From a virus, in IMG/VR virus record IMGVR_UViG_3300020048_000115, positions 6,053 through 70,052 of that record: a stretch of 64,000 bases of DNA; one strand, given 5' to 3'. This document shows positions 18,929 to 54,238 of this stretch, piece after piece. Each line of letters starts with the position of its first letter. The first letter of the stretch is position 1. Made by a program: the position numbers and the translations under genes. Below the pieces are notes generated by a model. The model was not told the origin of the DNA, did not search any database, and saw only the letters and a list, made by a program, of their open reading frames with translations.

Positions 18929-19360
18929 CTAGGTAAACTCTGAGAAAAACGAGCCAAAACTTTGTTGAGGAATGCTAGATCCACCAGTTAAATATTTTTC
19001 GCGCTGTATCCCGATCCAACGGGCCTGCTTAGCTTCGCTACCAGGTTTAGGTGCTTTTCCATAAACACTATGTAGCGCAACATGATGCTTGTTACATAGG
19101 GTGTAAACTTGCTCATATAACTCGTGATGATGTTCTTGAATAAACTCGTCTCTTACTGCTAAAATACCTTCGTCGGAAGATATATCATAGCCTTTTCGTT
19201 CAGCCCACGTTTCCAAAAGTATTGTTACTGAGTGTAAGTGATGCAATTCTAAATCTTCAGTCTTGTCACAGACAAAACACTCAGATTTCTTTTCATAGGC
19301 TGCTTTAGCCTTATCGCGTACCCATTTTACTGGAATACGGTTGTTTGTGTTTTTAGCCAT
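18929..19360 (-). CDS. HNH endonuclease (143 aa)
   Basis: CxxC ... ELHHLHS ... CNKHHVALH motifs. Sits in the classic position next to the terminase and portal genes. Confidence 0.7.
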   Translation of the reverse strand: MAKNTNNRIPVKWVRDKAKAAYEKKSECFVCDKTEDLELHHLHSVTILLETWAERKGYDISSDEGILAVRDEFIQEHHHELYEQVYTLCNKHHVALHSVYGKAPKPGSEAKQARWIGIQREKYLTGGSSIPQQSFGSFFSEFT

Positions 19361-19499: not shown

Positions 19500-20072
19500 A
19501 TGGATTCTGGAATATACCAAATAACTTTTCCGAACGGGTACTTTTACCTAGGAAAATCTGAAACAATATCACAGCGATGGAAAACACACCAAAAGAACTT
19601 TATCCAAAACACGCATACTAAAAAGATGCAAGCTGCTTACAACGAGTTTGGTGAGCCTGAGTACAAAGTTTTACTAAGAGTACACGCAGAGCATGTGGGC
19701 ATTTTTGAATCAGTGTTTATTAATCGTGCTTGGGGTCCGGGTATTTTAAATACTACTAAGCCCAAACCTCTGGACACCGAAACTGCGGAAGCGTATTTAG
19801 ATGCGTACGATAATATTGTGTTTAACAATACGTCGTGTATGTTGTATTCAACTCTAGAACACGTAACAAAACTCAAAGAGACTCACCTAGAGCTAACAGA
19901 GGCTAACGCAAGAATCAAGTCTTTAACAACTCAAGGATTTGTGCTACCCGATGAAGCACTTGATGCCATGGATGATTTAAAAGCTATTTGTTTAAAGCAA
20001 AACACAGAGCTACTACGACTAGCTAATCTCAGTGTGTATGACAGAATGTTTAATTACAGTGTATACGTGTAA
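19500..20072 (+). CDS. GIY-YIG homing endonuclease (190 aa)
   Basis: N-terminal GIYQITFPNGYFYLGKS motif. Opposite strand to its neighbours, with its own TTGCTT-17-TATAAT promoter. Overlaps the terL 3-prime end by 19 nt. Confidence 0.75.
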   Translation: MDSGIYQITFPNGYFYLGKSETISQRWKTHQKNFIQNTHTKKMQAAYNEFGEPEYKVLLRVHAEHVGIFESVFINRAWGPGILNTTKPKPLDTETAEAYLDAYDNIVFNNTSCMLYSTLEHVTKLKETHLELTEANARIKSLTTQGFVLPDEALDAMDDLKAICLKQNTELLRLANLSVYDRMFNYSVYV

Positions 20073-21340
20073 AGCGCATAACGGATAGCATCAGCCATGT
20101 GAGAGTAGTCGTCATGCTTTGGACGCTCGCGCTGTAAACCCTCTTTGGTATCCCAACGATACTGGTCAAACACAGCTAAGGCATGTGTACAGTGTGGCGC
20201 TACTTTTATGCGGTTTTGAGCTACTAAAGTTTGAGTATACGCAATACCAGGTAAGACGTCTTTTTTAGCTTTAGTAGTTGCTAGGTCGTAGGTGTACGCT
20301 AAGTCCGACGCAAACTGTGCAGCAGCCGAGTCAATAAAGATTGTTTCGACGCCGTGTTTGGCACAAAGCTCATGAAATACTTTAGCATGTTCGGCTGTGG
20401 TTGTTTCATTTTTTAAGTACTCGTCTACAATCCAAAACACATCCGACTCGAAATCGTAGATAATTATTACAAATGCAGTATAATCTCTGTAGCCAGGGTC
20501 ACAGCCAGCAATGGCTTCACCACGTAAACCTTCCGGAGGTTCACAAATGTCAGACACAGCTAGTGAGTAAATTTGACCCTCAAACACTGTAAACGACGCT
20601 AAATACTCTTGTTCGAATTCAGCGCGTGACATGCTACGGCGGGCTTCCGACACATCGGATTCTGACATACGAGTGTTTTCAGTATAGTCAGCCTGCATTG
20701 AAACCCACTCTGGAAAGTTGTTATCAAATCCACGATCCCAGAATTGAGAGAACCAGTTGTTGCGACCACGAGGTGTGGAAATAAATATGGCTTTGGCAGT
20801 GGGTTTGTCCAGGGTAGGTCTTAACGCAACGTTAAATGCCGCCTCACCGTCTTCGCCTAATGCGGCCTCGTCGAATATGATTAGGTCGTAGCTACGACCA
20901 ACACACGAGTCTACTGTGGATAACGAACCCATGCGAATAGTCGAGCCGTTTGATAGCTCAATAATTTTATCCTTTAAGTTATCGCGTGTGACTTCGAGAT
21001 CAAAGTGCTTGATTAGTTTACGTTGTAGTTCAAAACTAATACCCGATAAGTTGTAGTTCGGCGACATGATTAGTACATTAGACCCAGGTACTAGTGAAAC
21101 CAACTGCCCAACAACATTGGCGATATAAGTTTTGCCGAGTCTGCGAGCTAGTGCAGCGCAGACGAATCGGTATTTAGGGTCGTTGACAGCATTAATTAAA
21201 GCGATTTGGGGTCGGTTGATAGTATCGTAGATGCCTAGCAACTTAAGATAATTTGTGATCGGTAATTTAATAAATCTTTTGCTGGCGTCAAACTCCTCAA
21301 TTACATCACAGTTGACATCCGGACGTGAAATAGTTAACAT
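20054..21340 (-). CDS. terL: terminase large subunit (428 aa)
   Basis: Walker A AALARRLGKT and Walker B LIIFDEAA, followed by a C-terminal nuclease-like region. Confidence 0.85.
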   Translation of the reverse strand: MLTISRPDVNCDVIEEFDASKRFIKLPITNYLKLLGIYDTINRPQIALINAVNDPKYRFVCAALARRLGKTYIANVVGQLVSLVPGSNVLIMSPNYNLSGISFELQRKLIKHFDLEVTRDNLKDKIIELSNGSTIRMGSLSTVDSCVGRSYDLIIFDEAALGEDGEAAFNVALRPTLDKPTAKAIFISTPRGRNNWFSQFWDRGFDNNFPEWVSMQADYTENTRMSESDVSEARRSMSRAEFEQEYLASFTVFEGQIYSLAVSDICEPPEGLRGEAIAGCDPGYRDYTAFVIIIYDFESDVFWIVDEYLKNETTTAEHAKVFHELCAKHGVETIFIDSAAAQFASDLAYTYDLATTKAKKDVLPGIAYTQTLVAQNRIKVAPHCTHALAVFDQYRWDTKEGLQRERPKHDDYSHMADAIRYALYTYTL

Positions 21341-21813
21341 TAAACACCGTCTCCAGAGATAAGTCGAGAAATTAAACTCGAGTACTTCGACCCGTCTAGT
21401 CCCTCGTTGATTTGTACGTTGACTTGTTTTGATGGTGCTGTACCGGCCCGGAGCTTTTCCAGCTGAATTTCACGGTCTAGTAAGTCCATTGACATTTTAT
21501 GACTTAGTGAGAGTAATTCCGAAATATCCTTGGTTGACCCAGCTTGAGCTTCTTCGAGTTCAGTGAACTTTTGCTTGATTAAGGCGTCCATGGCCTTGCG
21601 CATTAAAAAGCGGTTATTGTAGCCGGTGTCCATAAACACTGCATCTACATACGCCTTGACTTCGCGACGTTTTAAGATCTCGGTGACAACTTCCACACTT
21701 AAATCCAGTTCATCCGCAACTTTACGTGGATCGTTGAGCTGCAGGTAGCAATTGGCTACTTCTAGGGATTCCGGTGCAATTTGTATGGTTTCTGCGGGTA
21801 GGTTTTGGGTCAT
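21340..21813 (-). CDS. terminase small subunit candidate (157 aa)
   Basis: Lies immediately upstream of terL and overlaps it by 1 nt. Reiterated direct repeats upstream. Confidence 0.45.
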   Translation of the reverse strand: MTQNLPAETIQIAPESLEVANCYLQLNDPRKVADELDLSVEVVTEILKRREVKAYVDAVFMDTGYNNRFLMRKAMDALIKQKFTELEEAQAGSTKDISELLSLSHKMSMDLLDREIQLEKLRAGTAPSKQVNVQINEGLDGSKYSSLISRLISGDGV

Positions 21814-21844
21814 AGATTAATCCTGTTTTGGTGATTATATCATG

Positions 21845-21940
21845 GGTGGTGTTATTGTGCAAGTGTGATTTTTTTGTGGGGTTTGGGTAAGTTGATGCAT
21901 GGTTGTGTGTGGTTGTGGTGGTGGTTAATGCGTGGGTCGG
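21845..21940. other. about 95-nt tract that is G+T-rich on the plus strand (C+A-rich for the minus operon), with several G-runs
   Basis: gggtggtgttattgtgcaagtgtgatttttttgtggggtttgggtaagttgatgcatggttgtgtgtggttgtggtggtggtt. Almost no C/A. Confidence 0.5.
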
Positions 21941-21943
21941 AAC

Positions 21944-22058
21944 TAAGTTTGTTGAGATTTTCTTTAAATAGGCCCATTGTGGCTACACCGTCTGTTACTG
22001 TAGTTTAGGGTCGGTTACGGCACCGAAAGTTTTGTTGAGATTTTCTTTAAATAGGCCG
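21944..22058. repeat. two 30-bp direct repeats (AAGTTTGTTGAGATTTTCTTTAAATAGGCC) 84 bp apart, upstream of terS
   Basis: Copy 1 at 21944-21973, copy 2 at 22028-22058. Each is followed by a gtgggt(c/g)gg box. Confidence 0.6.
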
Positions 22059-22170
22059 CGTGTGGGTGGGTCCATAGGCTTGTATGAAACCTATAGTCTA
22101 CTAACCGCCCTAGTCTTGTGAACCAAGGTATACATAGGGTAAACACCTAGTAAATAATTGTAGACAACCT

Positions 22171-22197
22171 ATAAATTTTGGGTATAATGGATTCATG
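22171..22197 (+). promoter_or_regulatory. early promoter, TGGGTATAAT -10 with ATG 7 nt downstream (leaderless type)
   Basis: tttTGGGTATAATggattcATG. Candidate -35 TAGACA. Confidence 0.5.
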
Positions 22198-22413
22198 ACA
22201 ACGAAAGACACTATGACAATATCTCTGCTGACCTCTTGCCTTGCCCGTTCACTCATCGAGCGTGAGCTGGACTGCTACAAATCTAACATGCGTCGCAAAT
22301 GCTATGACCATGACGTTAGCGTCAAGGCTGACGTTGCTCAGATCATTGAGAACTTAGAATTTGCTCTTGATGAAATCGAAGCTATCCGGTCTGAAAAAAT
22401 CTCTAACCTGTGA
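22195..22413 (+). CDS. early small protein (72 aa)
   Basis: ATG 7 nt after a TGGGTATAAT -10 element. Cys-containing. Confidence 0.5.
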   Translation: MTTKDTMTISLLTSCLARSLIERELDCYKSNMRRKCYDHDVSVKADVAQIIENLEFALDEIEAIRSEKISNL

Positions 22414-22425
22414 TATAATTGCATC

Positions 22426-22659
22426 ATGAACACACTCACTCTCTCTTTCCAAGACTTGAACATCAAGCCCCAAGACTTCAACGCCCAGACCTTTTCAATG
22501 GCACGCGCTGAGATCATCAATAAAGCCTGCGACACTATCATGCATTTTTATTTCACTGATGAGGATGAAATGGAATGCTTGTTTAATGTTGCTGATGCCC
22601 ATGTTGACATGGTGTTGCAAACTGTTACAATTAAAACTGCTGCTTACGATACACACTAA
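22426..22659 (+). CDS. early small protein (77 aa)
   Basis: ATG 6 nt after a TATAAT element. Confidence 0.5.
   Translation: MNTLTLSFQDLNIKPQDFNAQTFSMARAEIINKACDTIMHFYFTDEDEMECLFNVADAHVDMVLQTVTIKTAAYDTH
22598..22627 (+). promoter_or_regulatory. TTGACA-16-TACAAT promoter, copy 1 of an about 65-bp duplication
   Basis: ttgacatggtgttgcaaactgttacaatt. The same element recurs at 22823-22852. Confidence 0.45.
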
Positions 22660-22660
22660 C

Positions 22661-22813
22661 ATGATTAATTTTCTTTTCAAAGAGCGTATTGAAGTAGGTA
22701 CATACGGGTTTACCTCTTATCGTGTAATATATTTCTTTATTTTTCCCGGTATGCCTATCGCTTTTGTTGCTTATCTATTTGTTGTGGGCTGTATCGGTGT
22801 AGGTTGTAAATAA
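22661..22813 (+). CDS. small hydrophobic peptide (50 aa; MINFLFKERIEV...)
   Basis: In-frame internal start of track ORF 22559..22813. Lies downstream of a TTGACA-16-TACAAT promoter copy at 22598-22627. Confidence 0.4.
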   Translation: MINFLFKERIEVGTYGFTSYRVIYFFIFPGMPIAFVAYLFVVGCIGVGCK

Positions 22814-22822
22814 TTAAAGGGT

Positions 22823-22852
22823 TGACATGGTGTTGCAAACTGTTACAATTGA
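22823..22852 (+). promoter_or_regulatory. TTGACA-16-TACAAT promoter, copy 2
   Basis: About 65-bp direct repeat of 22598-22665 with 8 mismatches. Confidence 0.45.
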
Positions 22853-22967
22853 GACTTCAGCTTACGCTACACATTAACATGATTACATTACGCGAAATCA
22901 TCGAGGCGGTTATTCTTGCCGCACTTATTGCTTCTCCCTTTATTGTTTACTTTTGGAACATGAAACC

Positions 22968-23162
22968 ATGAAATACATTTATCTTGAAGGTGCATATGGT
23001 CGCACATATGACAACGGTTGGCAGGCTGAGGCTGATTGGCTAGCGGGTAAGGACTTTAAGATTGTGGATGGCCCTTACTGTAGCATCCGTGATGCTGAGG
23101 CCCTTAAAGAATTGGGTATGATCTGGTTTATGACTAGAGCAATGGACGAATTAGCAATGTAA
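22968..23162 (+). CDS. early protein (64 aa; MKYIYLEGAYGRTYDNGWQ...)
   Basis: In-frame start inside track ORF 22953..23162. A second copy of the duplicated promoter lies upstream. Confidence 0.45.
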   Translation: MKYIYLEGAYGRTYDNGWQAEADWLAGKDFKIVDGPYCSIRDAEALKELGMIWFMTRAMDELAM

Positions 23163-23260
23163 ACTTTTGTTTTCAAATGCAAACCATTGTAATACTTTGG
23201 TTTGCGGCCGCGCCGATTATACCATGTATAATCGCCCCGTGTCAAGGGGTTTTCTCACTT
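23163..23260 (+). repeat. early intergenic cassette copy 1 (hairpin + 21-bp palindrome + GTGTCAAGG box)
   Basis: Hairpin caaacca-ttgtaatactt-tggtttg. Perfect palindrome cgattataccatgtataatcg (23219-23239), then ccgtgtcaagggg. Confidence 0.6.
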
Positions 23261-23327
23261 ATTTTATAGGTGTTTACCCCTAGAAAATAGTTGTTGACGC
23301 TAGGCTAAATCGCGGTATAATAGACTC

Positions 23328-23456
23328 ATGAACACACAATACACTACTAAACAAATCGCAGAATTCATGGCCTTTGCTACTCGCCATGAGTTGCGCTTTA
23401 ACAACACTACAGAATTTAATTCTGCTATTCGTCAATTCTTTATGGTATAATTGATT
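23328..23456 (+). CDS. small protein (42 aa)
   Basis: ATG 6 nt after TATAAT (cggTATAATagactcATG). Confidence 0.4.
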
Positions 23457-23547
23457 TATCAAAACGAAAGGCTCTTATGAGTTTACTGTGCAACCGGATG
23501 CACAATTTAATCCGGTATGTTTCCCCTTAACTTTTTAGGATTTCCCC

Positions 23548-23871
23548 ATGACTACAAAAACCGTGAATTACACCCCTGAGCAAACCTTGAAAATGGTTGC
23601 TGACTATCAATCCGGTGTAACTGTTGAATCTATTGCTGAGGCATTGGGTAAAACTGTTCGCTCTGTTGTTGCTAAACTTTCGCGTGAGAAAGTTTATCAA
23701 GCCAAGACTTATAAAACTAAATCCGGTGATGCGGTAGTTAAAAAAGATGAGTTTGCCGATTATATCGCGCAAGCTCTTAGCCTGAGCGAGAATGATGCGG
23801 AATCACTCACCAAAGCTAATAAGACTGCACTCGCTAAGATTGTGGATTTTATCAAGGCTGAGAAAATGTAA
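23548..23871 (+). CDS. small HTH protein, paralog family A (107 aa)
   Basis: Motif VESIAEALGKTVRSVVAKLSREKVY. One of several paralogs. Terminator follows. Confidence 0.6.
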   Translation: MTTKTVNYTPEQTLKMVADYQSGVTVESIAEALGKTVRSVVAKLSREKVYQAKTYKTKSGDAVVKKDEFADYIAQALSLSENDAESLTKANKTALAKIVDFIKAEKM

Positions 23872-23872
23872 G

Positions 23873-23902
23873 CACTGCAAGGGCGCAAGCCCTTGCTTTT
23901 AT
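23873..23902 (+). terminator. intrinsic terminator
   Basis: gcaagggc-gcaa-gcccttgc, followed by TTTTAT. Confidence 0.55.
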
Positions 23903-24010
23903 ATTAATTAAAAGGATTAAAAATGTCTACTCTGTCTTTATTGTTGGTTTTTGTTGGGTTTCTTGTTATTGTTGCGTTTAAGATGTGGCTTGTAACAAAA
24001 ACTGGCAAAT

Positions 24011-24110
24011 AAACTTTTGTTTGCAATGAAAACCACTGTAATACTTTGGTTTTCAAACGCGCCAATTATACCATGTATAATTGGGCCATGTCAAGGGTTT
24101 TTGCATTTAT
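24011..24110 (+). repeat. early intergenic cassette copy 2
   Basis: Same hairpin. Palindrome ccaattataccatgtataattgg (24063-24085), then ccatgtcaaggg. Confidence 0.6.
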
Positions 24111-24172
24111 TTATTTATGTTGTATTTTTGCACTGACGCGGTTTTTCTGTAAAAATTGGGTATAATCTATAC

Positions 24173-24412
24173 ATGAACACAAAATACACTCTCAAAGATG
24201 CTGAAAAGCTGGTTTCTTGGCTTGGCACTGTGACTTCAATTGTAGGCGCTTTTATGGTTGCTTCGCAAGTTATCTTTTTTGGATATATTGCTTTTATCGT
24301 GGGTTCTGTATCATGGTTAATTGTCGGAATTACTAAAAAAGACAAGCCGCTGATTGTATTAAATGGAACTTTCTTTTTGGCTAACTTATTGGGTTTATAT
24401 AATGTTCTTTGA
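24173..24412 (+). CDS. small membrane protein (79 aa, 2 TM)
   Basis: Leaderless-type start 7 nt after TGGGTATAAT. Hydrophobic. Confidence 0.5.
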   Translation: MNTKYTLKDAEKLVSWLGTVTSIVGAFMVASQVIFFGYIAFIVGSVSWLIVGITKKDKPLIVLNGTFFLANLLGLYNVL

Positions 24413-24483
24413 GATTATTAAATTTGTGTTTTATACTCCACTGGTGGCACTGGTGGCTTTGATTACTTTTATACTGGAATAAT

Positions 24484-24678
24484 ATGACTAATAAAACTTT
24501 TCTTGAGAATCTGCAAACTGAATTGTGGGATATGTACAAAGATGTTAATAATCAGCGGCCGCGTCATTGGACATTGGAACAATGGGATTCTATTGAGTTT
24601 TTAGAAACTCAGCGCGAGTTACTGCTTAATATATTAAATGCAAAAACATTTAATAACTGGACTGTTATAGAATCATGA
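24484..24678 (+). CDS. hypothetical protein (64 aa)
   Basis: ORF translationally coupled to the next gene by ATGA overlap. Confidence 0.4.
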   Translation: MTNKTFLENLQTELWDMYKDVNNQRPRHWTLEQWDSIEFLETQRELLLNILNAKTFNNWTVIES

Positions 24679-25034
24679 TTAAATCCGCTACTGTTAGATT
24701 ATTCGAGAATATCCTGCGAGATGAATTCAAACTAAAATCTACAATACATATTAATAAATGTCGAGTTATTCGTTATGATGGTGATTCTTGTTTTGGTGAT
24801 TATCGAGGTGAATCTATTGGTCGTGGTAAATTCATGCACAAAATCAGAATTGCCACTAGTGAAGTGAAATCAGATACTGATTTATTTGCTACTCTCGCGC
24901 ATGAATATGTTCATGCTTGGCAAATGGAAAAACTGTTCGATTTAAACCATGATACTAAATCAGGGTTTACAAATTGGAAAAATTATTTCAAAACATATTA
25001 TCAAATTGATATTGAATCTATGCAGCCGGACTGA
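24675..25034 (+). CDS. SprT-like HExxH metalloprotease-domain protein (119 aa)
   Basis: LAHEYVHAWQ motif. Paralog of 26348..26728. Confidence 0.5.
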   Translation: MIKSATVRLFENILRDEFKLKSTIHINKCRVIRYDGDSCFGDYRGESIGRGKFMHKIRIATSEVKSDTDLFATLAHEYVHAWQMEKLFDLNHDTKSGFTNWKNYFKTYYQIDIESMQPD

Positions 25035-25135
25035 ATACTTTTGTTTTCAGCCCCAAACAAAACTAATACTTTTGTTTGCGCCAAATTATACCATATAATT
25101 TGCGTTTGTGTCAAGGATTTTTTACTAGGGGTTTT
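25035..25135 (+). repeat. early intergenic cassette copy 3
   Basis: Palindrome caaattataccatataatttg (25072-25092), gtgtcaagga, then ttttcacctatgttgtatttttgcac. Confidence 0.6.
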
Positions 25136-25218
25136 CACCTATGTTGTATTTTTGCACGGATGGTTTTTTGTGCGGTTTTTGGGTATAATCTACTCATACA
25201 CTATGAAAGGCTTTCAAA

Positions 25219-25695
25219 ATGGCAAAAATTTCCCGCGTTAGTATTTATGATATGGACGGTACAATTGTTTGCAGTATGCATCGATACAAAACTATTATTG
25301 ATAATAATGGCGAAAGAATTGATTTGCAATATTGGCGCGAAAATGAGTATCGCGCAATGGATGATGAATTATTGCCATTGGCTGAACAATATAGGGCTGA
25401 TTTGAATGATGAAAACTGTTATGTTATTATTGCTACTGCCCGTGTTTTGCATACCGCTGATAATACATTTATTGCTGACATACTCGGCGAGCCTGATTAT
25501 ATTATTTCCCGCGCTGACGGCGATACTAGCTCAGGCGGTAAATTGAAAATTGCGGGTTTGGCTAAGTTTTTTAATCTAGTTACTTTTCGTGATGCAGAGT
25601 TTACATTTTATGAGGATAATACTACATACTTGAAAGCGGTTTGTGACCGATTCAATATTCGTGGGGTATATGTTCCTTCAAAGCAAGGCCATTAA
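25219..25695 (+). CDS. HAD-superfamily phosphatase (158 aa)
   Basis: HAD motif I, IYDMDGTIV, at the N-terminus. Confidence 0.6.
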   Translation: MAKISRVSIYDMDGTIVCSMHRYKTIIDNNGERIDLQYWRENEYRAMDDELLPLAEQYRADLNDENCYVIIATARVLHTADNTFIADILGEPDYIISRADGDTSSGGKLKIAGLAKFFNLVTFRDAEFTFYEDNTTYLKAVCDRFNIRGVYVPSKQGH

Positions 25696-25778
25696 ATGTT
25701 ATACTATATCCAGCTTTTTATTTTAAGTTATCTATTAGGCGGGTTTATTGGATTTATTTTTAGTTATTGAAAAATAAA

Positions 25779-25803
25779 TTCAAAAAATAATAACCCTTCG
25801 GGG
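25779..25803 (+). terminator. intrinsic terminator (ataacccttcggggttat)
   Basis: GC hairpin with a TTCG loop and a T-run. The same hairpin recurs at 27487-27510. Confidence 0.55.
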
Positions 25804-25826
25804 TTATTTAATAAAATTATATATAT

Positions 25827-26081
25827 ATGGATAAAATAGGCTGGATTGGTTCTTTATTGTTGGCATTATGTGCCGTACCGCAAGCAATAGAATCATATAA
25901 AACAAAATCATCGGCGGGTTTAACATGGGGATTTATTTCCATGTGGTTTGTGGGCGAGATTTGCACTTTTATTTATATTATACCTAAAATGGATTTTCCC
26001 TTATTAGTTAACTATGGCGCAAATATTTGTTTCTTGACAGTTATTATATATTATAAAATTAATCCGAAAAAACCCCTGTAA
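25827..26081 (+). CDS. semiSWEET-like PQ-loop membrane protein (84 aa, 3 TM)
   Basis: GWIGSLLLALCAVPQAIESYKTKS ... IIYYKINP resembles bacterial semiSWEET / PQ-loop proteins. Paralog of 28543..28788. Confidence 0.5.
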   Translation: MDKIGWIGSLLLALCAVPQAIESYKTKSSAGLTWGFISMWFVGEICTFIYIIPKMDFPLLVNYGANICFLTVIIYYKINPKKPL

Positions 26082-26175
26082 TACTTTGGTTTGCGAACAA
26101 AAGTACTTTGTAGTACTTTTGGCGCCAAAATTATACCATATAATTTTGGCCCCTGTCAAGCGGTATTTGCGTTTA
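26078..26175 (+). repeat. early intergenic cassette copy 4
   Basis: Perfect 25-bp palindrome ccaaaattataccatataattttgg (26125-26149), then cctgtcaagcgg. Confidence 0.65.
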
Positions 26176-26197
26176 TTTTCTAGGTGTTTACACCTAA

Positions 26198-26290
26198 AAC
26201 TTTTGTTTTCAAAAGCCCGAGCAAACGAATACCTTTGTTTGCGCCAAAATTATACCACACCCTGTAGAGTTTGTCTATAGGGGTTTACAC
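26198..26290 (+). repeat. early intergenic cassette copy 5 (half-palindrome variant)
   Basis: gcgccaaaattataccacac (half site only), then ggtttacacctatgttgtatttttgcac. Confidence 0.5.
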
Positions 26291-26347
26291 CTATGTTGTA
26301 TTTTTGCACACTTAACTTTTTCGCTGATTTATTGGTATAATAAACGC

Positions 26348-26728
26348 ATGGACAAAAAAGCACTATTAAAGCACATCAGGCTTGAAACTGTAATGATTTG
26401 GGATTCACTTTGTGAATTGTATACTCCTTTGGTTCACTATAATGAACCCAAGATAGAACTAAATCCTTACACTTGGCGCACTGCGGGAAGCTGTTTTCAA
26501 ACTGAAAATGTAATTCAATTGGGTTACAAATTTTTCAAAGCTAAAACAGAATACTTCAATTATATGATAGATGTAATTTTGCCGCATGAAATTATTCATC
26601 AGGCTGATTTTAATTTATTCGGAGAATCAGAAAAAATTTGCGGTCATGGTGAAAATTGGCAAAAAATCATGTTAGAATATGGGCTTGATGCTGACCCGTA
26701 TCACACAATGAAGATTTCTAGAAAATAA
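26348..26728 (+). CDS. SprT-like HExxH zinc metalloprotease-domain protein (126 aa)
   Basis: ILPHEIIHQ followed by CGHGENW. Confidence 0.5.
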   Translation: MDKKALLKHIRLETVMIWDSLCELYTPLVHYNEPKIELNPYTWRTAGSCFQTENVIQLGYKFFKAKTEYFNYMIDVILPHEIIHQADFNLFGESEKICGHGENWQKIMLEYGLDADPYHTMKISRK

Positions 26729-26785
26729 TTCGGGCATTTTGCTCAATATGCGAATTCCGGCATTATCCGGTAATAAGGTTTTATA

Positions 26786-27484
26786 ATGGCTAAAAAACAA
26801 TTCTTTTGTATTCTTGATACTGAAACTACTATTAATGATACTGTGGCGGATTTTGCCATGATTATCGTTGACCGCGAGGGTATTATTCATAATCAATGCG
26901 CGGTATTAGTTGCCGGTCATTATAATAACTTTGAGTTATTCCATGATAAAGCCGCGAATGATATTTGGGGTTATGAGGGTTTGAATAAACGCAAATTTAA
27001 TTATATTAATATGCTTGATTCTGGTACTCGCGTTCTCGCGTCAGTTAATGCAATTAATAAATGGATTAATCAAGCCATTGGTAAATATAACCCACAATTG
27101 ACGGCATATAATCTGGCATTTGATAAATCAAAATGCCTTAATACTGGTATTGATTTGTCGGGTTTTAATTCTGAATTTTGTTTGTGGCAAGCTGCCGTGG
27201 GTAATATCTGCAATAAAAAACAATATCGTCAGTTTGCCTTAGATAATCACGCATTTAATAAAGTTACTGGTGCGGGTAATATGACTTTTCAAACTAATGC
27301 TGAGATTGTATGCGGTTTTATTAATGGTGAATTTATTAAAGAGCCACATACTGCCCTAGAAGATGCGCGAGATTTTGAATTGCCTATTCTCAAAGCTATT
27401 ATTAAAAAGCGAGATTGGAAAGATAATATCAAGCCTTATAACTGGCGCGACTTTCAAACTAAAGATTGGTTTGCCGCTAAATAA
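26786..27484 (+). CDS. DnaQ-like 3-prime to 5-prime exonuclease (DEDDh), 232 aa
   Basis: Exo I motif ILDTETT, Exo II YNLAFD, Exo III HTALEDARD. Confidence 0.7.
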   Translation: MAKKQFFCILDTETTINDTVADFAMIIVDREGIIHNQCAVLVAGHYNNFELFHDKAANDIWGYEGLNKRKFNYINMLDSGTRVLASVNAINKWINQAIGKYNPQLTAYNLAFDKSKCLNTGIDLSGFNSEFCLWQAAVGNICNKKQYRQFALDNHAFNKVTGAGNMTFQTNAEIVCGFINGEFIKEPHTALEDARDFELPILKAIIKKRDWKDNIKPYNWRDFQTKDWFAAK

Positions 27485-27486
27485 AT

Positions 27487-27512
27487 AATAACCCTTCGGG
27501 GTTATTATTAAT
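27487..27512 (+). terminator. intrinsic terminator (duplicate of 25779)
   Basis: aataacccttcggggttatt. Confidence 0.55.
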
Positions 27513-27705
27513 AATTTATGAAATCACTTTATATTATAGCCCTAGTTTTGCACTTACTAGATGATAAGCGTCTAGATACTGTGGCAGATACTAGATTTAC
27601 TTACTTTGATACTACGATTGGCGCATTATATGATTAAACAAGTTTATTATATGCTTTTGATTCTCATTATTGAGATTCTAGTATATCAGAGTATTATTAG
27701 GTGAT

Positions 27706-27810
27706 GTAATACTTGAGTTTGCAAACAAAAGTACGATGTAGTACTTTTGTTTGCGCCAATATTATAACATATAATATTGGGCCGTGTCAAGCATTATTTG
27801 CTAGGTGTTT
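27706..27810 (+). repeat. early intergenic cassette copy 6
   Basis: Perfect palindrome ccaatattataacatataatattgg (27755-27779), then ccgtgtcaagca. Confidence 0.65.
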
Positions 27811-27819
27811 TCCCTTAGA

Positions 27820-27915
27820 ACCTTGGTTCTCAAGGTCTGGCGCAAACGAATACCTTTGTTTGCGCCAAAATTATACCACACGGCGCGCAGGCTGTCAATA
27901 GGGGTTTGCCCCTAT
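27820..27915 (+). repeat. early intergenic cassette copy 7 (half-palindrome variant)
   Basis: gcgccaaaattataccacacggcgcg, then ggtttgcccctatgttgtattttcacac. Confidence 0.5.
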
Positions 27916-28018
27916 GTTGTATTTTCACACAAATAAAAAATAACTTGTTTTTGCTGGGTTTTTCCCTTATAATAGACTCATGGCAGGCAATAGGGCAGGC
28001 CAGAAAAAAGGAAAATTT

Positions 28019-28345
28019 ATGACTAGCAAAACTGTCAATTATACCCCAGAGCAAACCCTGAAAATGGTTTCCGATTATCAATCCGGTGCGACTGTGGAAA
28101 CCATCGCTGAAAACATGGGCAAAACTGTCCGTTCGGTTGTGGCGAAATTGTCACGCGAAAAAGTTTATGTGGCAAAATCTTATGTAACCAAAACGGGCGC
28201 ACCCGTGGTTAAAAAAGACGCGCACGCTGACGCAATCGCGGCAATTTTGGGCCTGAGCGAAGCCGAAGCCGATTCACTGACAAAAGCGAATAAAACCGCA
28301 CTAGAGAAAATTTTCTCTGCGCTGGCGAATTCTCGCCCAATCTGA
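28019..28345 (+). CDS. small HTH protein, paralog family A (108 aa)
   Basis: MTSKTVNYTPEQTLKMVSDYQSG ... AKLSREKVY. In-frame start inside track ORF 27980..28345. Confidence 0.6.
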   Translation: MTSKTVNYTPEQTLKMVSDYQSGATVETIAENMGKTVRSVVAKLSREKVYVAKSYVTKTGAPVVKKDAHADAIAAILGLSEAEADSLTKANKTALEKIFSALANSRPI

Positions 28346-28542
28346 CACAATAGGGCGAAAGCCCTATTATCTGAATATTATCTAAGTAAATTCCCCGAAC
28401 TTGCGGAAAATGTTTAATTACAAATTACTGTCTTTATTAGGGAAAAACCTTTAATATTCAGATAATAGGATTTTTATTATGATTAAAGCTGGACGAATTA
28501 CTTTCAAGTAAGATTTAATATAGATATTGTAAGGATAGTATA

Positions 28543-28788
28543 ATGGAATATATCGGCTGGATTGGCTCAATACTATTTGCAGCCTGTGGAATACCACAGG
28601 CTTATGAATCATATAATAAGGGTAATTCAAATGGCCTTACTTGGGCGTTTCTATTAATGTGGTTTTTTGGTGAGGTTTTAACCTTAATTTATATTATCCC
28701 CAAACTAGATTATCCGCTATTATTTAATTACTCTTGTAATCTAATATGTCTGCTTATTATCTTGAGATATAAAATTAAGCCGCGATAA
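28543..28788 (+). CDS. semiSWEET-like PQ-loop membrane protein (81 aa)
   Basis: GWIGSILFAACGIPQAYESYNKG ... ILRYKIKP. Paralog of 25827..26081. Confidence 0.5.
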   Translation: MEYIGWIGSILFAACGIPQAYESYNKGNSNGLTWAFLLMWFFGEVLTLIYIIPKLDYPLLFNYSCNLICLLIILRYKIKPR

Positions 28789-28797
28789 TATATAATA

Positions 28798-28822
28798 ACC
28801 CGCTTCGGCGGGTTTTATACTA
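28798..28822 (+). terminator. intrinsic terminator
   Basis: aacccgc-ttcg-gcgggtttt. Confidence 0.55.
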
Positions 28823-28823
28823 T

Positions 28824-28935
28824 GTAATACTTGAGTTTTCAACTCGAAACGAAAAGTAGTACTTTCGTTTGCGCCAAAATTATACCATAATTTTGGCATC
28901 GGTGTCAAGGATTATTTGCTAGGTGTTTACACTTA
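28824..28935 (+). repeat. early intergenic cassette copy 8
   Basis: Palindrome ccaaaattataccataattttgg (28874-28896), ggtgtcaagga, then ggtgtttacacttatgttgtttttacgcac. Confidence 0.6.
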
Positions 28936-28942
28936 TGTTGTT

Positions 28943-28957
28943 TTTACGCACTTGGCA
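28943..28957 (+). promoter_or_regulatory. sigma54-type -24/-12 element TGGCACGATTCTTGC (copy 1)
   Basis: Exact match to TGGCAC-N5-TTGC with G at position 7. Confidence 0.45.
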
Positions 28958-28969
28958 CGATTCTTGCGC

Positions 28970-28984
28970 CAGAAAAACCTGGCA
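28970..28984 (+). promoter_or_regulatory. sigma54-type -24/-12 element TGGCACGATTCTTGC (copy 2)
   Basis: Identical 16-mer, 27 bp downstream of copy 1. Confidence 0.45.
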
Positions 28985-29014
28985 CGATTCTTGCTTATAA
29001 TTAAAAATGCATAA

Positions 29015-29082
29015 TTTATAATTATCCAGACGCGAATGATTGTCGTTTACAAATGCAAATGATTCGTATTTGCACCCTGGAT
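29015..29082 (+). repeat. three iteron-like 17-mers GCRAATGAKTSGTMTTT
   Basis: gcgaatgattgtcgttt (29015), gcaaatgattcgtattt (29037), gcgaatgagtcgtatta (29066), with regular spacing of about 22-29 bp. Confidence 0.5.
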
Positions 29083-29175
29083 GCGAATGAGTCGTATTAC
29101 CGCGATTTAGGGTCATGTAGTACTTTTGGGCTATATCAGCACTGGTTTTTAGAACTTTAGTACTACAAAAGTGTG

Positions 29176-29240
29176 CTGCGCCAGTGGAAAACCTTGCGCC
29201 AGTGGAAAAACTCAGAGGTTTCCTGCGCCAGTGGCCCGTC
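29176..29240 (+). repeat. three CTGCGCCAGTGG(AAAA) direct repeats
   Basis: At 29177, 29197 and 29225. Covered only by a spurious ORF. Confidence 0.5.
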
Positions 29241-29311
29241 AAGTGCAAAATCTTGCATGTGGGTTACGCGCCCATTATATAGTGGAAAACCTTGCGTGTC
29301 AAGTAAAAAAT

Positions 29312-29867: not shown

Positions 29868-29892
29868 CCTTAGGGTCAAGAAATTTTATCTT

Positions 29893-29918
29893 GATTTAGA
29901 ATACAAAAACTAGTATAA
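29893..29918 (+). promoter_or_regulatory. sigma70 promoter TTGATT-17-TATAAT (drives the small RNA candidate)
   Basis: ttgatttagaatacaaaaactagtataat. Confidence 0.55.
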
Positions 29919-29924
29919 TAGTTA

Positions 29925-30047
29925 TATAAACAGTCGGGAAGGCAAGAGGGCTAGGGAGCCATTGCCGTTTGATTACCCTCGGCCACAGCCACTAACCAGT
30001 TACTATAAGTACTTATATCTGTGCGACACGAGTGGGCGTCAACGACT
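29925..30047 (+). ncRNA. candidate small RNA (about 120 nt) between promoter and U-tract
   Basis: TTGATT-17-TATAAT promoter at 29893-29918. 5-prime aaacagtcg (29929-29937) pairs perfectly with 3-prime cgactgttt (30034-30042), followed by TTTATTT. No ORF. Confidence 0.4.
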
Positions 30048-30058
30048 GTTTTTATTTA

Positions 30059-30087
30059 CTTGATTGTATAGTTTGTTTACTGTATAA
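30059..30087 (+). promoter_or_regulatory. sigma70 promoter TTGATT-17-TATAAT (drives the large RNA candidate)
   Basis: ttgattgtatagtttgtttactgtataat. Confidence 0.55.
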
Positions 30088-30093
30088 TAGATT

Positions 30094-30826
30094 TATTGGG
30101 TGACAGCGGAAACGGGATTTATCTGTTATGCGTCTTAATTGTGGGGAATACGTTCCGAGCCACAGCCCTTAGCTTCTAGAATTGATTGTTTTGGCTAGGC
30201 ATAGCTTTACAACCTGACACATATACTTGCACGCATGGCTACCTCGGCCGAGGTTTTAAACGCGCTTCTTGCAAGGTACTAAGATCAGCGCGTATTCGCA
30301 AAGCAATCAATTCTAGGTGTTATGAACCCAGATTTCGATCTGGATAACAACTTAATAATAACCGAAGTCTAGTTATTACCTAGTCTATTATGGGTACCTT
30401 CTGAAGATGGCTTGACCCTAAACTAACGCAAAATGTATCCGGTATGCAAACCGTTGTTAGTTTTAAATAAGCCGAAACCCTCATCACACGGCAGCCTTAC
30501 GCGATGTATTCCCATATGTCCAAGGCAGCAGTTGAGGGTCAAGGTGTAGGACTTTAGCCAAGCCTGTTAGCACTGGTGAAAGAACACCTAAAAATACAGC
30601 TATCTGCCAAACCAAGGCTCTGGCCGGCCCCAGGAATGTAGACAAGCGGGATTTGTGAACCCGGCATCGGCTAATCGCTGTTGCGCAAACACGCCAACCG
30701 ACTCTACTAGCGACCTTAATCCGTAACCACAGAGGAAACCTGCACGGATGGTACTAGACAACCATTAAAAAATCTCGAGATTCAACTGCCCGCACGGACT
30801 TGCTCCCGTAGCGGGCTTTTGTTTGT
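30094..30826 (+). ncRNA. candidate large structured noncoding RNA (about 730 nt)
   Basis: No ORF of at least 60 aa in any frame across 29914-31013. TTGATT-17-TATAAT promoter at 30059-30087. Internal long-range inverted repeats (ctagaattgattg at 30176 / caatcaattctag at 30307). Intrinsic terminator at 30788-30826. Confidence 0.4.
30788..30826 (+). terminator. intrinsic terminator at the end of the ORF-free RNA locus
   Basis: gcccgcacgg-acttgctc-ccgtagcgggc, followed by TTTTGTTTGTGTTT. Confidence 0.55.
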
Positions 30827-30940
30827 GTTTAATTTTACACTTAAAAATATTGTGGTGCTGCGCCAAATTATAAGTGGTTAGGCAATTTAACGCAAGTGGA
30901 TTTTTTAACATCTGACCCTAAGCCGAGCTTGCAACACACG

Positions 30941-53790: not shown

Positions 53791-53920
53791 GGAGTAGCCG
53801 TACGCACACCTTCCACGGGTAATCGGGAGCACCCGACATGGGTAGTGTGCTAAGATATGGTTGTATGAAGCCGATAGAAAAGAGTTTAAGACGCGGGTTC
53901 GACTCCCGCCAGCTCCACCA
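53791..53920 (+). tRNA. long tRNA-like element (about 130 nt) with canonical T-arm and CCA end
   Basis: T-arm gcgggTTCGACTcccgc + cagctcc + ACCA. The only 5-prime acceptor partner is ggagtag at 53791, which implies an insertion of about 55 nt or an unusual RNA. Confidence 0.3.
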
Positions 53921-54238
53921 AAAACACATTAAAGCTACTAGTCGCTGTGGGACACGTTCCCTCTTTAAGTGTAGTGTGTTTCTGAGGGGGCTGACCTGGC
54001 TTTCGATTAGGCTAAGAGTAAATACGTGGACAACTCGGCAATGCAGAAGCCGCAGGATTGAGGCACAGTGTAGTCGCTATACTCATAGTATAGAAAGACG
54101 CTCTACTCGGTCGCAAAAGCAAAACAAAAATAAACGCAAACGATAACACGTACGCTTTAGCAGCCTAAACACTGCTTAGGGTTTTCGTCGGTTCCTTGTA
54201 ACAGAATACCGACCCTAAATTAATGCAGACTGGATACT

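Follow-up and report, generated by a model that had tools for sequence, protein, structure and literature searches.

Proposed back-to-back promoter cassettes repeated between the small genes of an uncultured T5-like phage

What is the function of a control module of about 150 bp that is repeated between the small genes of an uncultured, distant relative of phage T5? We address this question in a 64-kb stretch of viral DNA, here called the window, and in related loci. The initial annotation had described a forward module before almost every small plus-strand gene: a terminator-like hairpin, a palindrome, a TGTCAAG box, and a TGnTATAAT element close to an ATG. The cassette recurs far above chance. 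Families of direct repeats of 20 to 143 nt, found by repeat search and alignment, join 23.16, 24.01, 25.03, 26.05-26.31, 27.70-27.94, and 28.82-28.95 kb and establish that the reiteration is real. Six intergenic cassettes between 23.2 and 28.9 kb carry eight promoter copies; a partial copy lies at 22.1 kb and a ninth promoter at 29.3 kb (29274-29302), beyond the range first described. The wording "almost every" overstated the case, since about 7 of roughly 19 plus-strand open reading frames (ORFs) have a cassette upstream.

The cassette region corresponds to the T5 pre-early region and is probably expressed first, in line with the early timing originally proposed. It encodes a Dmp homolog (E 7e-12), is collinear with the right end and terminal repeat of T5, and contains sequence at 29040-29110 that, like one hairpin type, resembles the T5 iss repeat AAATGAGAATCATT. 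The structural block of the window is likewise collinear with T5. Gene order is permuted among relatives (main orders n = 25, 17, and 9), and paralogs are duplicated between cassettes. Four HTH paralogs are found at 23548, 27980/28019, 29556, and 31014, and every relative has several HTH paralogs in this region. At 18929-19360 lies a gene for a homolog of T5.153 ("nicking site-specific endonuclease"), with 38% identity and E 4e-25; a tblastn search did not find a gpT5.026 homolog.

The consensus promoters of the array face the genes. The full form combines TTGACA, a spacer of 17-18 nt, and the extended -10 TGGTATAAT, matching the sigma-70 consensus at 12/12 positions, on the minus strand. An A-rich stretch lies upstream of TTGACA, and the spacer ends in TRTGn ahead of TATAAT. 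Behind the -10 come an invariant TTTGGCGC and a near-perfect hairpin; the plus-strand gene upstream has this hairpin at its 3' end. Eight matches of 11-12/12 with the TG and a ninth without it are all on the minus strand, and the supported genes of the same 6 kb are all on the plus strand. The antisense units are:

23179-23245, minus strand: unit A, with -35 TTGACA at 23240-23245, TGG plus TATAAT at 23216-23224, GGCGC at 23210-23214, predicted start near 23209, and hairpin at 23179-23205.
24027-24094, minus strand: unit B, with -35 at 24089-24094, TGGTATAAT at 24065-24073, GGCGC at 24059-24063, and hairpin at 24027-24055.
25054-25114, minus strand: unit C, with -35 at 25109-25114, TGGTATAAT at 25085-25093, GGCGC at 25078-25082, and hairpin at 25054-25078.
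26098-26159, minus strand: unit D1, with -35 at 26154-26159, TGGTATAAT at 26130-26138, GGCGCC at 26121-26126, and hairpin at 26098-26121, located within the perfect 25-nt palindrome 26125-26149.
26221-26277, minus strand: unit D2, initially a half-site, an 11/12 match with -35 TAGACA at 26272-26277, TGGTATAAT at 26249-26257, GGCGC at 26241-26245, and hairpin at 26221-26242.
27721-27790, minus strand: unit E1, with -35 at 27785-27790, TGTTATAAT at 27761-27769, GGCGC at 27753-27757, and a 14-bp hairpin at 27721-27754 (folding z -8.05).
27842-27898, minus strand: unit E2, initially a half-site, with -35 at 27893-27898, TGGTATAAT at 27870-27878, GGCGC at 27862-27866, and hairpin at 27842-27863.
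28797-28908, minus strand: unit F, with -35 at 28903-28908, TGGTATAAT at 28879-28887, GGCGC at 28871-28875, and hairpin at 28847-28870, behind which a second, terminator-like hairpin lies at 28797-28814; the RNA is predicted to be about 75-85 nt long.
29267-29302, minus strand: ninth consensus promoter, TTGACA-17-TATAAT without TG, then GGGCGCG, within the iss-like repeat field.

These units reassign the parts of the forward module. The TGTCAAG box is the minus-strand -35 (TTGACA), and the palindrome, read as a separate operator element, has the minus-strand extended -10 TGGTATAAT as its left half; the half-site copies retain exactly this -10. A divergent pair of -10 elements, also suggested, came near the mark; of the two, the minus-strand -10 alone is accompanied by a -35 and the TG. 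The terminator-like hairpin exists, yet it is the first sequence that the minus-strand promoter would transcribe and not the start of a forward module. Palindromes are present at the sites first listed: that at 26125-26149 reads CCAAAATTATA-CCA-TATAATTTTGG with arms of 11 bp, and perfect palindromes with shorter arms lie at 23213, 24063, 25082, and 27755. The 28874 site is still palindromic but has CATAAT in place of the plus-strand TATAAT, and at the half-sites 26249 and 27870 all that is left of the palindrome is ATTATACCA. The conserved segments GGTGTTTACACCTA and TGTTGTATTTTTGCAC are present, but each in some copies only.

The promoter-GGCGC-hairpin unit defines a family of 265 distinct copies in 104 IMG/VR stretches from syntenic T5-like phages. 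A perfect TTGACA is found in 232 of the 265, and in 126 of the 159 copies outside the retrieval pattern, compared with 0.3% at random sites. In these loci, GGCGC follows 232 of 255 distinct full-consensus promoters; the remaining 23 stand mostly ahead of a Shine-Dalgarno (SD) sequence and the ATG of a co-directional gene. Because the full consensus also precedes such SD-led genes, we take it to be what the host polymerase uses. Orientation is strongly constrained: 241 of 288 family copies face opposite-strand ORFs, and 267 of 268 are on the strand opposite to the Dmp/SprT/p232/PQ small genes. In the window, TATAAT-TTGGCGC is found as well near 30.86 kb, at the head of what appears to be an ordinary non-coding transcript.

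Folding places the predicted hairpins at the first transcribed bases, with z from -1.4 to -8.0; a hairpin score of at least 9 occurs within the first 50 nt in 65% of family copies and in 4.7% of random 50-mers. The 197 distinct hairpins have mismatches of about 3% and show no G:U strand bias (11 G:U versus 16 A:C), so they give no specific sign of a structured RNA from the promoter strand and resemble DNA palindromes or elements acting on both strands. A terminator-like site within 200 nt is seen in 45% of family copies versus 14% of random windows, and with relaxed rules and a limit of 60 nt the share is 42% in the promoter sense and 38% in the gene sense. A terminator can be recognised in only 40-45% of the family. 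The conserved element in the sublineage of the window is a 16-nt box; its copies are arranged as direct repeats here and as inverted repeats in relatives, a pattern more typical of a protein-binding site.

A plus-strand promoter with a consensus -10 and a weak or absent -35 lies about 60-90 nt to the right of the minus-strand one, and its predicted +1 is the A of an ATG. The sense features are:

22135-22197, plus strand: partial cassette in forward orientation (inverted repeats, promoter scan, N6-ATG count), with palindrome TAGGGTAAACACCTA at 22135-22149, -35 TAGACA at 22161-22166, and -10 TATAAT at 22183-22188; ATG 22195 (72 aa) is the predicted +1.
22411-22428, plus strand: extended -10 promoter TGATATAAT-N6-ATG without a cassette upstream; ATG 22426 (77 aa) is the predicted +1.
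23267-23330, plus strand: sense half of cassette A, with palindrome TAGGTGTTTACCCCTA at 23267-23282, -35 TTGACG at 23294-23299, and -10 at 23316-23321; ATG 23328 (40 aa) is the predicted +1.
24161-24175, plus strand: sense promoter B, TATAAT at 24161-24166; ATG 24173 (79 aa, DUF6552 membrane protein) is the predicted +1.
25126-25221, plus strand: sense half of cassette C, with palindrome 25126-25141 plus TGTTGTATTTTTGCAC, -10 at 25184-25189, and predicted start near 25196; ATG 25219 (Dmp-like, 158 aa) follows a 23-nt leader with SD and is not leaderless.
26278-26350, plus strand: sense half of cassette D, with palindrome 26278-26293 plus TGTTGTATTTTTGCAC and TGGTATAAT at 26333-26341; ATG 26348 (SprT-like, 126 aa) is the predicted +1.
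27899-27982, plus strand: sense half of cassette E, with palindrome 27899-27914 and -10 at 27968-27973; ATG 27980 is the predicted +1.

TATAAT-N6-ATG occurs eight times in the 64-kb window, against 0-2 occurrences for each of the other spacings (0 to 15), and six of the eight open plus-strand ORFs of 40-126 aa (22195, 22426, 23328, 24173, 26348, and 27980). In related loci, the spacings N6 (n = 192) and N7 (n = 94) stand out from the remaining ones (17-53). Of the 49 distinct sequences that precede SprT-like orthologs, 36 keep TAnnnT-N6-ATG while the six spacer bases drift; for orthologs of the ATG 23328 gene, 13 of 19 distinct upstream sequences keep the arrangement. The leaderless mRNAs first proposed are therefore likely for some small genes, because the ATG coincides with the predicted +1 and the spacing is conserved. 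The rule of an ATG 6-8 nt after the -10 applies to several genes, but not to cassette C, with its leader, nor to cassette F, where TTATAAT has no gene behind it. ATG 27980 has the spacing and is in frame with the HTH gene, but it is not conserved in relatives; the start that is conserved is ATG 28019, which has an SD. Nor is the sense -10 generally TGnTATAAT: it is mostly GGGTATAAT or CGGTATAAT, and the canonical form occurs only at 22411, 23443, and 26333.

We see an even chance that each cassette is an antisense promoter, for a short RNA or as an insulator, placed back-to-back with a leaderless sense promoter and linking gene modules that shuffle. Host RNA polymerase of the sigma-70 type would read both promoters. 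The minus-strand promoter would yield a short RNA with a 5' hairpin that runs antisense across the end of the adjacent gene; in about 40% of family members this RNA would stop at the 5' hairpin or at the bidirectional terminator of the gene, and otherwise it would enter the gene. Such RNAs may insulate gene units from read-through, damp the upstream mRNA, or both, in the manner of OOP RNA. In phage lambda, OOP RNA from pO is a 77-nt antisense RNA that overlaps the 3' end of cII and acts through RNase III-dependent decay. Both systems place a strong promoter just past the 3' end of the gene it faces and have a short transcript, here a predicted one, that is mostly hairpin and terminator and whose sequence complements the convergent mRNA at its 3' end. 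The lambda unit is single-copy with a defined terminator, whereas here there are 8-9 units per genome, and the terminators, predicted from sequence, belong to about 40-45% of units. The plus-strand promoter would supply leaderless mRNAs for part of the small genes. Lambda cI from PRM is a leaderless phage mRNA, and here too transcription is predicted to start at the A of AUG, 7 nt past the -10, which leaves no room for a Shine-Dalgarno sequence. In contrast to cI, the arrangement here is serial over several early small genes, conserved in the lineage, and mixed with SD-led genes in one region.

Interference would be expected at each gene that a constitutive consensus promoter faces, so the benefit of the minus-strand promoter is not obvious, and the invariance of TTTGGCGC and the palindromic spacer exceed what promoter function alone needs. 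The fixed discriminator and start sequence may mark a separately regulated promoter class. T5 uses host sigma-70 polymerase throughout, and its promoter classes share -35 and -10 but differ at -5/+2 (Klimuk et al. 2020, PMC7472727). In our phage, one class has the invariant TTTGGCGC at -5/+2, a region that varies among the leaderless promoters; T5 early promoters have ATATT instead, and for the window we can only infer class-specific regulation.

The palindromes could alternatively be candidate sites for phage DNA-binding proteins such as the four HTH paralogs, at the -10 palindrome CCAAAATTATA-N3-TATAATTTTGG or at a lineage-specific palindrome or box between +3 and +55. Protein binding at the latter would block the consensus promoter, and the cassette would be a switch timing antisense promoters on and off. 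We consider this unlikely, though it is compatible with, and not exclusive of, the back-to-back explanation. HTH proteins may still bind the palindrome, as 138 of 265 family copies retain the palindromic spacer, more than a promoter needs. The absence of G:U bias among near-perfect palindromes, the HTH paralogs of every relative, the resemblance of one hairpin type to iss repeats, and the few hairpin types, common to the copies of one genome yet mixed within genomes, fit such sites, as does the box AAACAAAAGTATTACA, with 14 matches in the window versus 2.7 expected, 11 of them minus-strand sites within cassettes. However, HTH operators do not usually have arms of 10-20 bp with loops of 3-12 nt, some hairpin types are not constant in loop length, and the copies at 26249 and 27870 lack the -10 palindrome while keeping all else. 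More doubtful is that the invariant G/GCGC beside the hairpin is a putative target of a T5-type nicking endonuclease, the cassettes marking single-strand interruptions in the structural-gene strand as in T5; relative to the antisense promoter, a nick would fall at its start, in the non-template strand, and relative to the plus-strand gene, at its end, in the template strand. The major nicks of T5 have the consensus R/GCGCRGG, also on the minus strand (PMC3517423; T5 annotation). The window is collinear with T5, has its GGCGC copies on the same strand, and encodes the T5.153 nickase homolog; G precedes GCGC in 232/232 copies. In T5, the terminal-repeat nick directly precedes a perfect hairpin (GCGC-AGGGCAATTGCCCT-GC); another nick adjoins a bidirectional terminator. 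The common core is only 4-5 nt, however, without the RGG after GCGC; T5 nick sites have no promoters, and the T5 terminal repeat lacks an array of consensus promoters. The rest of the window shows no depletion of GGCGC, the T5-type 8-mer RGCGCRGG is biased 6:1 towards the minus strand in the window but only 31:20 in relatives, a ratio that is not significant, and the TATAAT-TTGGCGC before the non-coding transcript better fits a promoter or start-site feature. A link to T5-type nicks is possible but weak, and nicks here are putative.

Least probable is that the minus-strand promoters serve TerS, TerL, and the structural genes, the hairpin after the start being a nut/put-like signal through which a lineage-specific factor makes polymerase ignore terminators, running antisense through the pre-early genes, as a shut-off, into the late operon. 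In 197 of 198 cases, family copies do lie on the strand that carries TerS, TerL, and portal, the hairpin is fixed in position and lineage-specific in sequence like lambdoid boxB, and a scan of the interval from copy A to TerS found no terminator on the minus strand. Lying opposite to the small genes explains the orientation equally well, though, and TerS has its own promoter-like site at 21834-21861, with 1.4-2.5 kb and intervening antisense genes between it and the nearest upstream copy. The 10-20 bp stems differ from known nut/put elements, and the job does not need nine tandem promoters.

Under the back-to-back explanation, a close parallel is the promoter-early stem-loop (PeSL), the reiterated regulatory cassette of T4-type phages (Arbiol et al. 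2010, PMC2839356; Comeau et al. 2014, PMC4122927). Both are short composite motifs repeated between small, variable, early genes, with a near-perfect sigma-70 promoter (TTGACA-N17-TATAAT), an AT-rich upstream region, and a stem-loop, and both are tied to module insertion, deletion, and reshuffling, here visible as three main gene orders and duplicated paralogs. The PeSL promoter is co-directional with its genes and its stem-loop terminates upstream transcription, whereas in this T5-like siphovirus the consensus promoter opposes the genes and transcribes the stem-loop, a weaker second promoter serves the gene, and an invariant GGCGC is added. As near-identical linkers, the cassettes may also mediate the duplication and reshuffling of small gene modules, much as PeSLs do in T4-type phages.

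The repeated module at 23.2-28.9 kb is a back-to-back promoter pair, in which the stronger promoter faces against the genes and is kept there by selection. The initial annotation had described a reiterated cassette with palindromes, a TGTCAAG box, and hairpins; direct-repeat search and alignment confirm the repeats, and these elements were found where it placed them. It had treated the palindrome and the box as separate elements, a division that does not hold: they are the halves of one minus-strand promoter, CTTGACA plus TGGTATAAT. On the minus strand, TGTCAAG reads CTTGACA and ATTATACCA reads TGGTATAAT, with 17-18 nt between them. The six intergenic cassettes, here termed A to F, hold eight such promoters. 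The -35 is TTGACA in 7 of the 8 copies and TAGACA in one; the -10 is TATAAT with an extended TGn, as TGGTATAAT in seven copies and TGTTATAAT in one. With the TG extension, the match to the sigma-70 consensus is 12/12 in all eight copies but one (11/12). A ninth copy, at 29274-29302, scores 12/12 without TG, and all nine promoters lie on the minus strand. Two copies had been called half-sites (26249 and 27870); the plus-strand half of the palindrome is indeed lost there, but a complete minus-strand promoter is kept.

Downstream of the -10, window copies carry TTTGGCGC (CGGCGC, TGGCGC or TTGGCGC in three copies). The next element is a hairpin, which starts 0-4 nt from the predicted transcription start and, on the plus strand, sits 20-60 nt beyond the upstream gene's stop codon; in the window, predicted minus-strand starts fall 42-84 nt from the stop codons of the upstream genes. 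We refer to the promoter, GGCGC, and hairpin together as the antisense unit.

The pattern TTGACA-N14-15-TGGTATAATTTTGG retrieved 104 stretches from IMG/VR, many of them from contigs of ~100 kb and many with multiple copies. These relatives are syntenic loci with 55-90% protein identity and a conserved order: portal, TerL, and TerS on one strand, then HTH, Dmp-like, SprT-like, p232, PQ-loop, HTH, and HTH paralog on the other. Across 265 distinct copies, the overall consensus is A-rich-cTTGACACGGgCcaAAATTaTaTGgTATAATTTTGGCGC, with a -10 consensus of TRTGnTATAAT and a perfect TTGACA in 232; the A fraction at -60 to -38 is 0.40 versus 0.30 overall. Among copies outside the retrieval pattern, 126/159 have a perfect TTGACA, versus 0.3% at random positions. 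Orientation is nearly invariant: the small genes are on the other strand for 267 of 268 family copies, and TerS, TerL, and portal are on the same strand for 197 of 198. GGCGC follows 232 of the 255 distinct full-consensus promoters in related loci, and the remaining 23 mostly precede the Shine-Dalgarno sequence (SD) and ATG of a gene on the same strand. Because the copies that lack GGCGC mostly serve such co-directional genes, the host polymerase presumably reads this consensus. By its -35 and -10 hexamers the minus-strand element is a sigma-70 type promoter, and on this indirect evidence it is predicted to initiate with the host holoenzyme.

A further palindrome, TAGGTGTTTACACCTA (TAGGnG..CnCCTA), precedes the minus-strand -35 by 0-23 nt. 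It recurs in a forward copy of the promoter at 22135, where it sits 11 nt upstream of the forward -35; for this reason we favor an upstream promoter element over a plus-strand terminator, probably one that belongs to the consensus-promoter type and not to the forward promoter. It is present in only 35 of 261 family copies and is therefore a sublineage feature.

A promoter-GGCGC-hairpin unit also occurs in 29870-30900 (minus strand), a stretch of ~1 kb without ORFs. At ~30895-30860 (minus strand), TTGCGT-17-TATAAT-TTGGCGCAG is followed by a GC-rich hairpin, and the unit is conserved in relatives; TATAAT-TTGGCGC also heads an apparent non-coding transcript at ~30.86 kb. In more than 20 loci, a 170-nt island at 30040-30210 shows 70-90% identity. 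The 29870-30900 region has no Rfam match and may hold one or more non-coding RNA genes.

In 65% of family copies, the 50 nt that follow GGCGC contain a hairpin scoring at least 9, versus 4.7% of random 50-mers. Their sequence is wholly different between lineages; types are shared within a genome, and genomes mix types.

Hairpin types that follow GGCGC
AAACAAAAGTATT
AACCCTAC-N5-GTAGGGTT
ATATAAGC-N4-GCTTATAT
CTGCTATCA...
ATGCGAAT...ATTCGCAT
TGTTGC-(A/T)6-8-GCAACA

With an equal penalty for all mismatches, 197 hairpins contain 11 G:U and 16 A:C pairs (~3% mismatches overall). Since G:U is not in excess over A:C, the hairpins are near-perfect DNA palindromes. An apparent G:U excess of 50 versus 6, suggestive of RNA-specific structure on the promoter strand, was an artefact of lenient wobble scoring. 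The palindromes may function as DNA; alternatively, they may work on both strands, giving the sense mRNA its 3' hairpin and the antisense RNA its 5' hairpin. About 40% of family copies resemble intrinsic terminators in each direction, and 99 of 222 copies (45%) have a terminator-like site no more than 200 nt away in the direction of the promoter, versus 14% of random windows; within the window, a terminator for the antisense transcript is clear only at copy F.

The forward half of the cassette, TATAAT with a usually poor -35, begins 60-90 nt rightward of the minus-strand -35; the TGnTATAAT form first proposed for this -10 is rare in its canonical shape. The closeness of the ATG was borne out: TATAAT-N6-ATG occurs eight times in 64 kb, versus 0-2 times for any other spacing from 0 to 15. 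Exactly six nucleotides separate TATAAT from ATG at 22195, 22426, 23328, 24173, 26348, and 27980, cassettes A, B, D, and E included, and plus-strand ORFs of 40-126 aa open at six of the eight sites. The proposed 6-8 nt spacing thus stands in A, B, D, and E, but not in C, which has a normal leader with SD, nor in F, where no gene follows the forward -10. Two further statements were too broad: the ATG at +1 at 27980 is not conserved among relatives, and only about a third of plus-strand ORFs, not almost every small gene, are preceded by the module.

In relatives, N6 and N7 spacings are enriched. Among SprT-like orthologs, TAnnnT-N6 abuts the conserved ATGGACAAAAAA in 36 of 49 distinct upstream sequences while the six bases vary, and the 23328 family keeps the leaderless arrangement in 13 of 19. 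It is this promoter geometry, with spacing held by selection as sequence drifts and with no room for an SD, that argues for leaderless mRNAs with a predicted start at the A of the ATG. The Dmp-like, p232, PQ-loop, and first HTH genes have 20-30-nt leaders with SD; with both kinds of gene in one region, the phage would use both modes. A second reiterated promoter module, distinct from the cassettes, is formed by a 65-nt direct repeat (22603-22667 and 22821-22885, 91% identical), each copy of which carries a strong forward promoter, TTGACA-16-TGTTACAAT, followed by a short membrane-like ORF.

The surrounding genes match the order of the T5 right end: major tail, capsid, portal, a 143-aa protein, TerL, TerS, and then small plus-strand genes.

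Structural and packaging genes of the siphovirus block
4282-11100, minus strand, tape measure
12097-13233, minus strand, major tail
15793-17721, minus strand, protease-capsid
17736-18920, minus strand, portal
20054-21340, minus strand, TerL
21340-21813, minus strand, TerS

The kinship is distant: the capsid protein is only ~34% identical to those of Vibrio and Aeromonas T5-like phages, and megablast found no DNA-level relatives of 22-30 kb among 50,697 phage records. The 143-aa protein between portal and TerL (18929-19360, minus strand) is a homolog of T5.153 (38% identity, E 4e-25, tblastn), a protein that carries the annotation "nicking site-specific endonuclease" in T5-like phages; it is 38-48% identical to such annotated endonucleases and has a precomputed Pfam match, PF26848. 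The phage probably nicks its own DNA in the manner of T5. Between TerL and the nickase gene, an ORF with a GIY-YIG domain, probably a homing endonuclease, is inserted on the opposite strand (19500-20072, plus strand). A 35-nt direct repeat at 21948-22065 (TTTGTTGAGATTTTCTTTAAATAGGCC..., 83 nt apart) separates TerS from the first plus-strand gene and may mark a genome terminus or a packaging signal. Farther along, 23 tRNA genes lie within 42.5-57.3 kb; in this cluster ARAGORN calls a permuted tmRNA (53828-54259, plus strand, tag ANDNTYALAA), a call that overlaps the ORF 53838-54146 and may be false.

In the cassette region, all ORFs with family matches are on the plus strand: HTH, DUF6552, two SprT-like, Dmp-like, and two PQ-loop. 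The ORF at 25219-25695 (plus strand), labelled "polynucleotide kinase" by PHROGs, is a homolog of T5 Dmp (41% identity over 81 aa, E 7e-12, tblastn), a 5'-deoxyribonucleotidase encoded by a pre-early gene in the T5 terminal repeat. A dense repeat field at 28950-29300 contains motifs of the GCGAATGATT type at 29040-29110, like the T5 injection-stop region, as well as ACYTGGCACGATTCTTGC twice, TGCGCCAGTGGAAAAMCT two to three times, and the ninth consensus promoter; in one repeat, GGCGCAGG (29222-29229, minus strand) fits the T5 nick consensus exactly. No homolog of T5 A1, A2, or gpT5.026 was found in the window by tblastn. On the strength of the Dmp homolog, the injection-stop-like motifs, and the synteny with T5, we infer that 22-30 kb would be the counterpart of the T5 pre-early, terminal-repeat region.

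Known systems resemble the cassettes in part. The promoter-early stem-loop (PeSL) cassettes of T4-type phages likewise combine a reiterated intergenic near-consensus early promoter with an AT-rich upstream region and a stem-loop, and go with modules gained, lost, or shuffled between related phages (PMC2839356, PMC4122927). In PeSL, however, the promoter runs in the direction of its flanking genes, and the stem-loop upstream of it terminates the preceding gene, whereas here the consensus promoter opposes the genes (267/268) and the stem-loop lies downstream of its start. Gene order varies in the relatives: among loci L001-L104, the order PNK(Dmp)-p232-PQ-SprT occurs in 25, PNK-SprT-p232-PQ in 17, and SprT-PNK-p232 in 9. 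Promoter-hairpin units sit at the junctions of the permuted modules, and paralog pairs lie between cassettes. Since the rearrangements of gene order fall at the cassettes, with duplicated paralogs in between, the cassettes behave like T4 PeSL linkers and would double as linkers for gene-module shuffling. In its placement beyond the 3' end of a gene and facing it, the antisense unit resembles the promoter of lambda OOP, an antisense RNA that damps cII.

This geometry suggests a mechanism. The antisense promoter would yield a short RNA that contains a hairpin and is complementary to the upstream mRNA at its 3' end; by analogy with OOP, this RNA would insulate the gene unit and/or damp the upstream mRNA. 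TTTGGCGC, which is invariant, may be the signature of a promoter class. In T5, the discriminator is the main difference between temporal promoter classes, and polymerase contacts at -5/+2 are modulated by a phage protein (PMC7472727).

The symmetry of the module also lends itself to a DNA-level role. The operator-type symmetry noted initially is real, with a dyad that overlaps the promoter and 9-11 bp arms around the minus-strand -10 in six window copies, and a search of related phages found the palindrome kept in 138 of 265 family copies. The palindromes could be candidate operators for the HTH paralogs, a rather doubtful proposal that fits the presence of these paralogs and the absent G:U bias of the hairpins. 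It also fits a 16-nt box (AAACAAAAGTATTACA) used as both a direct and an inverted repeat: the box, which is the conserved element in the window's sublineage, occurs 14 times versus 2.7 expected, 11 of the 14 being minus-strand sites inside cassettes. In the window its two copies are direct repeats separated by a complementary segment, and in relatives it forms an inverted repeat.

Alternatively, G/GCGC plus hairpin may be a candidate T5-type nick site, which we consider unlikely. Its core, Pu/GCGC, and its strand match T5 once the maps are aligned (G precedes GCGC in 232/232), a nickase homolog is encoded, and a perfect hairpin also follows the T5 terminal-repeat nick. The extended T5 consensus R/GCGCRGG is nevertheless unmet: here the base after GCGC is A or C, hairpin sequence comes next, and none of the eight window copies fits the 8-mer. 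Moreover, T5 nick sites stand without a promoter, and consensus promoters form no array in the T5 terminal repeat; nor is GGCGC depleted outside the cassettes. The full 8-mer RGCGCRGG occurs seven times in the window versus 2.9 expected, with a 6:1 excess on the minus strand, but its strand bias in relatives (31:20, p=0.16) is not significant.

RGCGCRGG sites in the window
1118, 5816, 12890, 25508, 29222, and 39755, minus strand
57993, plus strand

It is equally improbable that T5-type nicks are built into transcription signals here, with the T5.153-like nickase cutting at the G/GCGC and palindrome found at every antisense promoter start. In that case, on the DNA that enters first, a template-strand nick would close each pre-early gene unit and open a promoter that is already nicked. 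That the promoters feed the late operon through antitermination, in the direction of TerS, TerL, and portal, seems very unlikely.

The components are all known: consensus promoters, leaderless starts, antisense RNA, and reiterated promoter/stem-loop cassettes. Their arrangement, a consensus promoter fixed antisense and fused to GGCGC and a palindrome, is absent from the literature searched, where the motif strings had no match; Rfam gave nothing relevant at E<=1 for 21.5-31 kb. Blastn of the 40-nt promoter consensus returned chance matches only, and so no cultured GenBank phage carries the unit. In 596 Gb of genome contigs, TGGTATAATTTTGGCGC has 63 matches, with ~70 expected by chance for a 17-mer, and only four loci have the full unit, all on unbinned-looking MAG contigs. 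The arrangement stands at the end of each early gene throughout an uncultured T5-like lineage.

T5-like phages run their entire programme on host RNA polymerase; the ordering of pre-early, early, and late genes and the purpose of the nicks are long-standing questions. A very clean handle on them is available in this lineage: a perfectly conserved promoter-GGCGC-palindrome unit set against every early gene in more than 100 genomes, serial leaderless genes, and a nickase homolog. The interest of the arrangement rests mainly on its sharp conservation and direct testability, and the promoter would also be a compact, very strong, bidirectional ready-made part. If the antisense units are insulators or shut-off devices, they would represent a new way to build early phage transcription units; if the nick reading is true, it would give T5-type nicks a first function, either insulating transcription units or helping transcription to start on relaxed DNA just after injection. 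Either way, the cassettes appear to link shuffling gene modules outside the T4 group.
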